Source: Escherichia coli (GTDB lineage Bacteria > Pseudomonadota > Gammaproteobacteria > Enterobacterales > Enterobacteriaceae). Taken from it: 50,632 nt of DNA. Positions 14,821 to 17,845 of the stretch are shown here, one piece after another. The translations under genes and the position numbers were made by a program. How positions within the stretch are numbered: position 1 is the stretch's first letter; each line of letters begins with the position of its first letter. The notes beneath the pieces are model-generated. The model searched no databases, had not been told where the DNA came from, and saw nothing but the letters and a program-made list of their open reading frames with translations. The stretch lies in assembly GCF_003334315.1 (NCBI RefSeq), contig NZ_QOWR01000031.1; one strand, 5' to 3'.

Positions 14821-15075
14821 TTATAAAGATTTGTAAATATAACCGTCTCCGGTATGTTGCCTGAGGCGGTTTTTTTGTCTCTAACGTGCGGAAAAATTTG
14901 TTCCTCTTCACATTTTTTGTACAACCGACATGCCCGTGTAGCTCACAAATATGACAGTGGCGTGAATTTTGCGCATTGACGGCAGTTATGATTCGCGGTA
15001 TTGCTTAACTGTGATTGCACATTTAGTAATCACTGTTTTCTTTTCCACCAGAAACCAGTATGAGGGAAACGAGGC

Positions 15076-15243
15076 ATGAAGAGACAAAAACGAGATCGCC
15101 TGGAACGGGCACATCAACGTGGTTATCAGGCCGGCATCGCCGGACGCTCAAAAGAAATGTGTCCCTATCAGACGCTGAATCAAAGGTCACAATGGCTGGG
15201 AGGCTGGCGAGAAGCCATGGCGGACAGGGTAGTAATGGCCTGA
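15076..15243 (+). CDS. rmf: Ribosome modulation factor (55 aa)
   Basis: ATG at 15076 translates as MKRQKRDRLERAHQRGYQAGIAGRSKEMCPYQTLNQRSQWLGGWREAMADRVVMA. Below the 60-aa cutoff, so absent from the track; the listed ORF 15060..15257 is in a different frame. Confidence 0.93.
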   Translation: MKRQKRDRLERAHQRGYQAGIAGRSKEMCPYQTLNQRSQWLGGWREAMADRVVMA

Positions 15244-15260
15244 TTCTGTCTCTTTAAAAA

Positions 15261-15312: not shown

Positions 15313-15831
15313 TCAGAAGGCAGACGTATCCTGGAACAGACCGACTTTCAGGTCGCTGGCGGTATAGATCAGACGACCATCAACCAGCACTTCGCCATCC
15401 GCCAGGCCCATAATCAGACGACGGTTAACAATGCGTTTAAAGTGAATACGGTAGGTCACTTTTTTCGCTGTCGGCAGTACCTGACCAGTGAATTTCACTT
15501 CGCCAACGCCCAGCGCGCGGCCTTTACCTTCGCCGCCCAGCCAGCCGAGGTAGAACCCTACCAGCTGCCACATTGCGTCCAGGCCCAGGCATCCCGGCAT
15601 AACCGGATCGCCAATAAAGTGGCATCCGAAGAACCACAGATCCGGATTGATATCCAGTTCTGCTTCAACATACCCTTTGTCGAAGTTACCACCCGTTTCG
15701 GTCATTTTGACCACACGGTCCATCATCAGCATGTTCGGTGCTGGCAATTGCGGGCCTTTAGCGCCAAACAGTTCACCGCGACCAGAGGCAAGAAGGTCTT
15801 CTTTTGTATAGGATTCGCGTTTATCTACCAT
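15313..15831 (-). CDS. fabA: 3-hydroxydecanoyl-ACP dehydratase/isomerase FabA
   Basis: Track ORF 15313..16029 trimmed to the ATG at 15831 ([30 protein letters not shown]...), 172 aa. Confidence 0.95.
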
Positions 15832-15869: not shown

Positions 15870-15905
15870 AGCTAACACGTGTACGCTGAACAAGTCCGAT
15901 CAGTT
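15870..15905 (-). promoter_or_regulatory. fabA promoter operators: FabR palindrome and adjacent FadR box
   Basis: Minus strand reads AACTGATCGGACTTGTTC (FadR-like box) followed by AGCGTACACGTGTTAGCT (FabR palindrome), matching the fabA promoter as I recall it. The block abuts the ycbZ stop codon. Confidence 0.65.
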
Positions 15906-17660
15906 CGGAATAAACCAGTTCAGCCAACGTAATGGCCATGGAAAACGGTGACGTCCTTCCTGTTGCGATGCTTGCGCGATACGTTCCTGGATGGTTTGCA
16001 TCAGCGTCGTTTGGCCTTCGCCATCCCACACCAGATTTAATAATAACGGCAGTGCGTCAGTCACATCGTCTACTGCCCAGATGGTGAATTTGCCTTCTTC
16101 TACCGCTTTCACCAGTTCACTGTGAATACTTAAATGGCGAACGTTAGCTGTGGGGATAATGACACCTTGTTTCCCGGTTAACTCACGTTGCTGGCAAATA
16201 GCAAAGAAGCCTTCGATTTTCTCATTTAAACCACCGACCGGCTGGGCGCGACCGAACTGATCGACTGAACCTGTGATAGCGATACTCTGATTCACCGGCA
16301 CATCGGCGAGGGCGCTTATCAGGGCGCAGAGTTCAGCCATCGAGGCACTATCTCCATCAACTTCACTGTATGACTGCTCAAATGTCAGCGATGCTGAGAA
16401 GGGGATCTGTTGCTCAAGCTGTAGTTCCGACATCAGGAACGCTTGCATGATCATCATCCCTTTCGCATGGATATTGCCGCCAAGCTCCGCTTTGCGTTCG
16501 ATGTCGGTGAATTCACCATCGCCAATATGCACAACGCAGCTAATGCGAGAAGGTTCGCCAAAAGCGCGTGGATGACCCGGAAATTCAATGACCGAAAGGG
16601 CGTTAATTTGCCCGATGCGTTCGCCTTCGGTTTCAATCAGGATTTGCTCCTGAAGGATCTCATCCTGCATACGTTCAGCGAGGAAACCTTCGCGCCATTC
16701 ACGCTGCTGCAGCATTAAGTTTAGCTGCTCGCCGGAGAAGGTGTCGCCATCACACAGGGAGGCGACCTCTTTACACTGGCGGAGGATCCACTGCGGGCTA
16801 AGCGGAAGTGTTTCTTGTTCACCGGTGTAGCGTGCTGCTTCGCGGATAAGTATCGGCCAGGCATCCGCTCCCGGTGCAGGTAAGTGATTATGTCTGGCGG
16901 TAAATGTCACCCAGCGACACCACTGGGTTACTGACTCCGCATCGACAATCTGCAGAGTATCTTCAAATTCGCTATAAATAGCCTGCTCTGAAAGCTCTGG
17001 CTCCATCTCCTGGAAATCAGCCAATGATTCGCGTTCGCCTACCAGAATGACTTTCAGCTTCAATGGCATCGAAGGCACAGAGACGGGGAGAGGGCGCGAC
17101 TCATCAAACGCAACCCAGTCAAAACGCTCGCGGTTAACGATATTTTTCAGCCGCATCCACAGCAGAGGTTGCGCCAGCAGTGTACGCAAAGAGATGATGA
17201 GAATACCGCCATTTGCCTGATGCACCAGACCAGGCTGCAGGGTAATGTCGCCATTAAACTGGCGCAGGCAGCCAAAGAGTTGCTCCGCTTCTACCCAGTC
17301 GGCAGCGACAACTTGCGTTAAAGTCGCAAAATTATCATCTGCACTCACTGCGTGACGTAAGCGGATGGAGTGGCCGGAAACCTCATAGTGACCGCCCACC
17401 AGTTGGCCTGCATCGCTTTGTAGCGTACGCGCGGCATTGGCAATAAGATTCAGATACTCAGACTCTTCCGGGGCCTTCGCCAGCATAAAAGAGGAGGATG
17501 CTCGCGTATGCAGCAACTGCTCCAGCGCAAATTGCAGCCGCGGTTGAGTATCACTGAATAAAGGATCGTTTTCGTCAATCAAATGTGGCTGAGCAAATAT
17601 TTCCTGATAGCTATCGGTATCAGGAACCAGGTCACGCCATGCAAGTTTCGTAATGGTCAA
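15900..17660 (-). CDS. ycbZ: Lon-like protease homologue YcbZ (LonH)
   Basis: 586 aa; C-terminal Lon proteolytic-domain signature around GDSASMAE; no Walker A motif found by eye. Confidence 0.88.
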
Positions 17661-17845
17661 AGTTGATGTTTTTTAGTCTGTTGTCAAAGCCGCGATTATA
17701 CCGTAACCGGCACTACAGCACACGTAGAAAGCACCGACAATACTCCTGGCATGGGCGTTAAAGCTCACAGGATGGAGATTCTTTTCTTCACTGGCCTAAA
17801 AAGCTGATATTCTGTAAAGAGTTACACGGTAACATTGAGATCGCT

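Follow-up and report, generated by a model that had tools for sequence, protein, structure and literature searches.

YcbZ of Escherichia coli, a probable LonC-type, ATP-independent Lon-like protease with degenerate nucleotide-binding motifs

The window analysed here, a stretch of 50,632 nucleotides from Escherichia coli (contig NZ_QOWR01000031.1 of assembly GCF_003334315.1), encodes a Lon-like protein whose RefSeq product name is 'AAA family ATPase', and raises the question of whether this protein has a nucleotide-hydrolysing site at all and, if not, what kind of protease it is. A sequence-only reading of the locus had found a Lon signature near the C-terminus of the product and no canonical Walker A motif in its N-terminal part, and had proposed an ATP-independent or partner-dependent Lon homologue.

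The ycbZ gene and its proteolytic domain

15900 to 17660, minus strand: ycbZ coding sequence, 586 codons plus TGA, with a TTG start (from the open reading frame list and translation)
15313 to 15831, minus strand: fabA, 68 nt downstream of ycbZ on the same strand

The open reading frame is the E. coli K-12 gene ycbZ, located between fabA and the divergent matP. The RefSeq coding sequence (ycbZ, WP_000156518.1) has identical coordinates in a 100% identical chromosome, and the 2.2-kb region around it matches several E. coli chromosomes at 100%. We considered and rejected the idea that ycbZ is a pseudogene or an annotation artefact, as every one of the 5426 complete E. coli genomes carries the frame intact and the catalytic residues do not vary; a homologue kept in a 0.59-Mb endosymbiont genome speaks against it too. 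An in-frame stop lies 5 codons upstream of the TTG in the window, and this start is probably right because homologues align from residues 1-5. No obvious Shine-Dalgarno sequence was seen in the 20 nt upstream of it (CAGACTAAAAAACATCAACT; window positions 17660-17700), which, together with the TTG codon, suggests a weak initiation of ycbZ translation. A promoter scan returned no sigma-70 consensus between positions 15750 and 17900, and a terminator scan gave only two sites, both within the ycbZ coding sequence and at chance level. There was likewise no sign that YcbZ belongs to a defence system, PADLOC giving only a marginal match to CARF_LON (E 0.0034).

16020 to 16631, minus strand: Lon (S16) proteolytic domain, about residues 344-547
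16347 to 16349, minus strand: catalytic Ser438 in D-G-D-S-A, invariant in a 57-sequence alignment
16218 to 16220, minus strand: catalytic Lys481 in G-G-L-N-E-K (residues 476-481), invariant in the same alignment
16173 to 16196, minus strand: LonC-type insertion 1, C489-QQR-EL-T-G496, aligned without gaps to CKALGLSG of Meiothermus taiwanensis LonC (MtaLonC)

The Lon signature, which bears out the first claim of the sequence-only reading for this 586-aa product, corresponds to residues 435-450, and Pfam places Lon_C at residues 435-539. YcbZ thus carries what is expected of the Lon family (MEROPS S16), a C-terminal Lon domain with a Ser-Lys dyad and, N-terminal to it in the same chain, an AAA+ module, although the motifs of the latter are dead. 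The Ser438/Lys481 dyad and the DGDSA and NEK motifs around it are invariant across relatives that are 29-88% identical, a pattern that, as read from the alignment, is a signature of selection on catalysis. The domain also contains both of the insertions that distinguish LonC proteases: the first, defined with the consensus CX3GLX(G/E) (PMC3391209), reads CQQRELTG (489-496) in YcbZ, with a glutamate at the consensus glycine, and the second is LVKAV (516-520), which aligns without gaps to VLEAV of MtaLonC.

The degenerate AAA+ module

16641 to 17546, minus strand: degenerate AAA+-fold module, about residues 39-340, with an alpha/beta subdomain and a helical lid and without the helical-hairpin extension
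17451 to 17474, minus strand: Walker A (P-loop) remnant A63-P-E-E-S-E-Y-L70, placed by hhalign opposite G-P-S-G-T-G-K-T of the long relative P0199
17187 to 17210, minus strand: Walker B remnant G151-G-I-L-I-I-S-L158, aligned to GGYLlLDA of long forms

Regular-expression scans of the whole YcbZ protein gave no match to GxxxxGK[ST], [AG]xxxxGK[ST], GxxGxGK or GK[ST]. That a rare motif is missing would say little on its own; here it is meaningful because the homologous P-loop position could be located by profile-profile alignment. For this, the 57-sequence alignment (A1), which comprises short (YcbZ-length) and mid-length relatives, was compared with 40 long forms using hhalign (probability 100%, 565 columns). 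In the YcbZ stretch compared, residues 58-70, the strand FMLAK pairs with NVYVM of P0199, and the loop that follows has Tyr69 at the position of the Walker lysine, Leu70 at that of the serine or threonine, and three glutamates. The P-loop position is degenerate and without Gly-Lys in all 57 sequences of A1, where the consensus is roughly hhhhK(A/G)(P/E)(E/D)xxEY. In the Walker B segment, which should read hhhhDE in an ATP-dependent Lon (LonA or LonB) or an AAA family ATPase and reads ILIISL in YcbZ, the aspartate position is occupied by Ser157 and the glutamate position by Leu158; the aspartate column of A1 is mostly serine, proline or glycine. The claim that a canonical Walker A is missing therefore stands, both over the whole protein by regular expression and at the aligned P-loop position, and a functional Walker A as found in the ATP-dependent Lons is replaced by APEESEYL.

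The fold itself has outlived its motifs. An AlphaFold2 model of YcbZ built from the 57-sequence alignment (pLDDT 90, pTM 0.85) places the APEESEYL loop between the strand 58-62 and the helix 67-80, that is, at the position of a P-loop, and in this model the AAA+ fold is retained, with both the alpha/beta subdomain and the lid. The profile-HMM and structure-prediction checks proposed with the sequence-only reading agree with this picture: Pfam finds Lon_C and also AAA_32 ('LonB-like AAA domain', residues 140-225), and structure prediction gives an AAA+ fold whose P-loop is without Gly-Lys. We initially considered the unmatched positions 1-34 of the AAA_32 model as the P-loop and dropped this after scanning P0199, where AAA_32 matches no more of the alpha/beta subdomain than the half that follows the extension (residues 324-456), and generic families, AAA_16 and AAA_22 among them, match the P-loop instead. 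Searched alone by sequence against the PDB, the N-terminal 142 residues of YcbZ gave nothing (the best match, to an arginine kinase at E 1.2, is noise). The P-loop remnant was revealed only by profile-profile alignment together with fold comparison.

To place these observations, we searched 1.84 billion cluster representatives, which gave 3087 matches, and counted motifs in the 137 near-full-length relatives among the best 150 of these. By size, they comprise 38 short (530-610 aa), 35 mid-length (611-730 aa) and 64 long (>730 aa) forms; the short forms align to YcbZ from its N-terminus, and the long ones are LonC-like. Gly-Lys is present at the P-loop in none of the 38 short forms, 10 of the 35 mid-length forms and 40 of the 64 long ones, with a canonical GxxxxGK[ST] in five long forms, and the lone [AG]xxxxGK match among the short forms (P0130, residue 144) falls outside the P-loop position. 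At Walker B, neither Asp-Glu nor Asp-Asp occurs in any of the 137. The hhalign comparison further shows that YcbZ is missing about 220 residues that the long forms have after the P-loop helix and before the next strand. The start of this stretch in P0199 (residues 89-122) matches the Pfam family LonC_helical (PF20437), for which a Pfam search of YcbZ gave no match.

A 583-aa homologue, 49% identical to YcbZ, is encoded in the insect symbiont Candidatus Dasytiphilus stammeri (GCA_041942865.1, L002 5001-6752), on a contig of 585,967 bp, where it adjoins ompA and not fabA. Retention in a genome so reduced argues for a housekeeping role of YcbZ.

Likeness to LonC and alternative explanations

The closest solved relative of YcbZ is LonC, represented by MtaLonC of M. 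taiwanensis ('TTC1975 peptidase'; PDB 4FW9, 4FWD, 8K8V), which is MEROPS S16.007 as cited in PMC9569914. It is the best match among solved structures (E 2e-57, residues 140-547 of YcbZ to 296-691 of LonC), and structure-based alignments give an identity of 25-28% with the LonC homologue. LonC was set up in 2012 as a third Lon subfamily, one that shows no ATPase activity and breaks down unfolded substrates in a processive manner, independently of ATP. Its counterparts of Walker A and Walker B read GPPSLGKHE and GYLILDA, and its protease domain is marked by two diagnostic insertions; its clade takes in Lon-like proteins from Klebsiella, Salmonella, Vibrio and Yersinia, and Lon proteins of more than one subfamily occur in E. 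coli (PMC3391209). By cryo-EM, the LonC P-loop was found in 2024 to still bind a phosphate ion, and only phosphate, while the chaperone activity of MtaLonC was attributed to the heptameric form and to the helical-hairpin extension (PMC13069640).

YcbZ shares with this subfamily the AAA-like module devoid of ATP-hydrolysis residues, and departs from it in several respects: 1) it has 586 residues, against 719-732 in LonC; 2) it is without the helical-hairpin extension of the alpha/beta subdomain that defines LonC; 3) the phosphate-binding Gly-Lys of MtaLonC (GPPSLGKHE) is gone, the corresponding stretch reading AKAPEESEY; 4) the Walker B aspartate of GYLILDA is likewise gone from GILIISL; 5) it has an aromatic and basic C-terminal tail that long LonC-like forms do not; and 6) it comes from a mesophile, unlike MtaLonC. 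YcbZ is thus best described, as far as its sequence indicates, as LonC-like but not a canonical LonC, more reduced than the prototype in having neither the extension nor Gly-Lys.

The other Lon types are further away. Archaeal LonB (TonLonB of Thermococcus onnurineus, PDB 3K1J) has intact Walker A and B motifs, neither of which YcbZ retains, and a transmembrane insertion in the alpha/beta subdomain; in the hhalign comparison YcbZ has no insertion between Walker A and B, and the NCBIfam LonB model scores it at 85.6 bits against a cut-off of 516.6, the Lon models being sub-threshold as well. LonA (E. coli Lon, or protease La) has a homologous proteolytic domain with a Ser-Lys dyad (E ~1e-4 against YcbZ), but unlike YcbZ it has a large N-terminal substrate-binding domain and an active AAA+ motor, the residue before its catalytic serine is proline where YcbZ has aspartate, and the full-length TM-score between the two is 0.3-0.4.

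Taken together, we consider it highly probable that YcbZ is a LonC-type Lon-like serine protease in which every nucleotide motif that could be located has been destroyed and which would act independently of ATP. The homology to LonC supports the ATP-independent branch of the sequence-only proposal. By analogy with MtaLonC, YcbZ would assemble into a ring, probably a hexamer, in which the dead AAA ring would serve as a structural scaffold and an entry gate atop the proteolytic chamber, and it would cleave polypeptides whose unfolded or intrinsically disordered state lets them into the chamber with no ATP-driven unfolding. This transfer from LonC may be incomplete, as YcbZ is without the LonC substrate-recognition extension. 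In LonC, the helical hairpins form a basket that catches substrates and carries the chaperone activity (PMC13069640); YcbZ has neither this basket nor the phosphate-binding Gly-Lys, and what determines its choice of substrates must therefore be sought elsewhere: in the N-terminal 56 residues, in the C-terminal tail or in its cellular localisation.

Three other explanations can be weighed against this one. That YcbZ is a true ATP-dependent protease, hydrolysing ATP at a non-canonical AAA+ site, would agree with the full retention of the AAA+ fold and with the RefSeq, UniProt-style and JGI names, which say ATPase or ATP-dependent. Yet the protein contains no GK[ST] and has a tyrosine for the Walker lysine, glutamates in the loop and a serine for the Walker B aspartate; the catalytic Walker B glutamate is found in 0 of 137 relatives, even the Gly-Lys-keeping LonC has no ATPase activity (PMC3391209), and the names were probably propagated from the Pfam AAA_32 match, which misses the P-loop. 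We regard this explanation as very improbable. Hardly more probable is that YcbZ is mainly non-proteolytic, a ring-shaped chaperone or scaffold like heptameric LonC. The chaperone activity that MtaLonC exhibits as a heptamer lends it some appeal (PMC13069640), but that activity is also ascribed to the very extension that YcbZ is missing, and the conservation of the Ser-Lys dyad, DGDSA and NEK down to 29% identity is at odds with a loss of proteolysis.

A partner-dependent protease, to which an unfoldase, an adaptor or the ribosome delivers substrates in place of the lost ATPase and extension, is the least improbable of the three, although still unlikely. It would make sense of a protein that has neither a motor nor the substrate-catching extension of LonC, and is in line with the genetic links to translation that have been reported and with a two-hybrid screen that suggests a contact with RNase E (PMC13232886). 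This contact, however, was seen by two-hybrid only, with membrane-tethered baits and a bias towards membrane proteins suspected by the authors themselves (PMC13232886), and across seven divergent loci the genes conserved around ycbZ are matP, fabA and rmf, with no ATPase or adaptor among them. Partner dependence is in any case compatible with the preferred reading of YcbZ as a LonC-type, ATP-independent protease, and the two are not exclusive.

The C-terminal tail, the fabA junction and the role of YcbZ

15903 to 15968, minus strand: aromatic and basic C-terminal tail, residues 565-586, specific to the short subfamily
15889 to 15905, minus strand: FadR-type box AACTGATCGGACTTGTT of the fabA promoter, a pattern match
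15870 to 15887, no strand assigned: FabR-type palindrome AGCTAACACGTGTACGCT, a pattern match

The tail of YcbZ is predicted at low confidence (AlphaFold pLDDT ~55); an amphipathic tail of this aromatic and basic kind sets the short forms apart. Of 37 short forms, 78% combine at least two Trp/Phe residues with a net positive charge over the final 16 residues; the same holds for 17% of mid-length forms and 0 of 62 long ones. The hydrophobic moment of the tail is greater in the short forms than in the long (p = 7e-6). It includes PLRWLNWF in E. coli, and FLKRMFKQLMGKK, SLFRFFKRMVKK and GWFTRLFR in other short forms. In sequence, it resembles the membrane-targeting helices of MinD, FtsA and RNase E, a likeness we put forward only as a hypothesis. 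The tail coincides with two previously described elements, a two-hybrid prey and a ribosome-arresting nascent peptide. The former is the fragment 565-586, which scored in a bacterial two-hybrid with membrane-tethered RNase E (PMC13232886). As to the latter, a ribosome stall that ranks among the strongest in E. coli occurs at Pro585/Asn586; reporter assays, tRNA sequencing and cryo-EM have confirmed it, with the Asn586 codon in the A-site and tRNA-Asn accommodation at this AAC codon as the limiting step (PMC8848927).

Queuosine modifies a set of tRNAs that includes tRNA-Asn. A link between queuosine, tRNA-Asn and the ycbZ stall (Pro585-Asn586 codons, 15903-15908) is possible; YcbZ protein is reported to be up about 2-fold in a tgt (queuosine-less) mutant (PMC9508795).

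The codons at which the ribosome stalls lie at the junction with fabA. By their likeness to the consensus sequences, we take the two boxes found there to be putative sites for FadR and FabR. The first 6 nt of the FadR-type box are the AAC (Asn586) codon and the TGA stop of ycbZ, and the FabR-type palindrome begins 12 nt past the stop, so that the earlier statement that the 3' end of the gene abuts the FadR/FabR operators of fabA was right and slightly understated, the box overlapping the last codon and the stop. The same offset is seen in Vibrio nigripulchritudo, whose homologue (~39% identical) ends, at L003 2401-2440, in CAT AAC TGA followed by TCCGACTTGTT. A box resembling that of FabR lies 12 nt past this stop, and L007 likewise has a similar box beyond its stop codon. 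The terminator scan of the window gave no terminator-like site between ycbZ and fabA, and RNA-seq work has described a ycbZ-fabA operon (PMC4161252). Among seven divergent homologues, five (L003, L005, L006, L007 and L008) have ycbZ followed by fabA on one strand, 64-124 nt apart; matP lies divergently upstream in three of the seven loci and rmf beyond fabA in two. We know of no functional link between a Lon-like protease and the synthesis of unsaturated fatty acids.

In the window, rmf (ribosome modulation factor) converges on fabA and ycbZ; the 168-nt RefSeq gene rmf is overlapped by a 65-aa open reading frame at 15060-15257.

YcbZ-type proteins have so far been found in Enterobacterales, a Vibrio, Pasteurellaceae and Celerinatantimonas, with related mid-length forms in Aeromonadaceae. 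A speculative and rather unlikely idea is that they form a minimal LonC branch, in which the basket and the phosphate loop were exchanged for an amphipathic membrane-targeting tail, resulting in a peripheral-membrane, ATP-independent protease that is co-operonic with fabA across these orders. If this were true, YcbZ would be a functional analogue of the membrane-anchored LonB. And since the tail is the stalling peptide, and its asparagine codon and stop lie within the FadR box of fabA, arrest, membrane targeting and the architecture of the fabA promoter could be coupled.

The published genetics points to a role of YcbZ near translation. Two independent evolution studies found that erythromycin selects ycbZ loss-of-function alleles, and a reconstructed ycbZ inactivation mutant is resistant to erythromycin (PMC4079197, PMC7686311). 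Loss of ycbZ is reported to raise stop-codon readthrough, the work of Gagarinova et al. (2016) being cited to this effect in two later papers (PMC8848927, PMC9508795). In a ycbZ knock-out, DgcE turnover is unaffected (PMC6510439), and the amount of SecA^N, a truncated form of SecA, does not change either. A search of the literature returned nothing on YcbZ together with YhbY, nor on P75867.

That the P-loop is missing is not new: the LonC literature has implied it since 2012, and it was made explicit for YcbZ in 2019, when a paper referred in passing to a Lon homolog which 'lacks ATPase activity' (PMC6510439). The product names have nonetheless not followed. Both 'AAA family ATPase' in RefSeq and 'putative ATP-dependent protease' in several papers are misleading, being contradicted by the sequence as we read it; they were probably propagated from the Pfam AAA_32 match, which leaves the P-loop out. 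What remains of modest value is the correction of this name, the question of substrates and the features specific to the short subfamily. In practical terms, YcbZ should be read as a LonC-like, probably ATP-independent protease.
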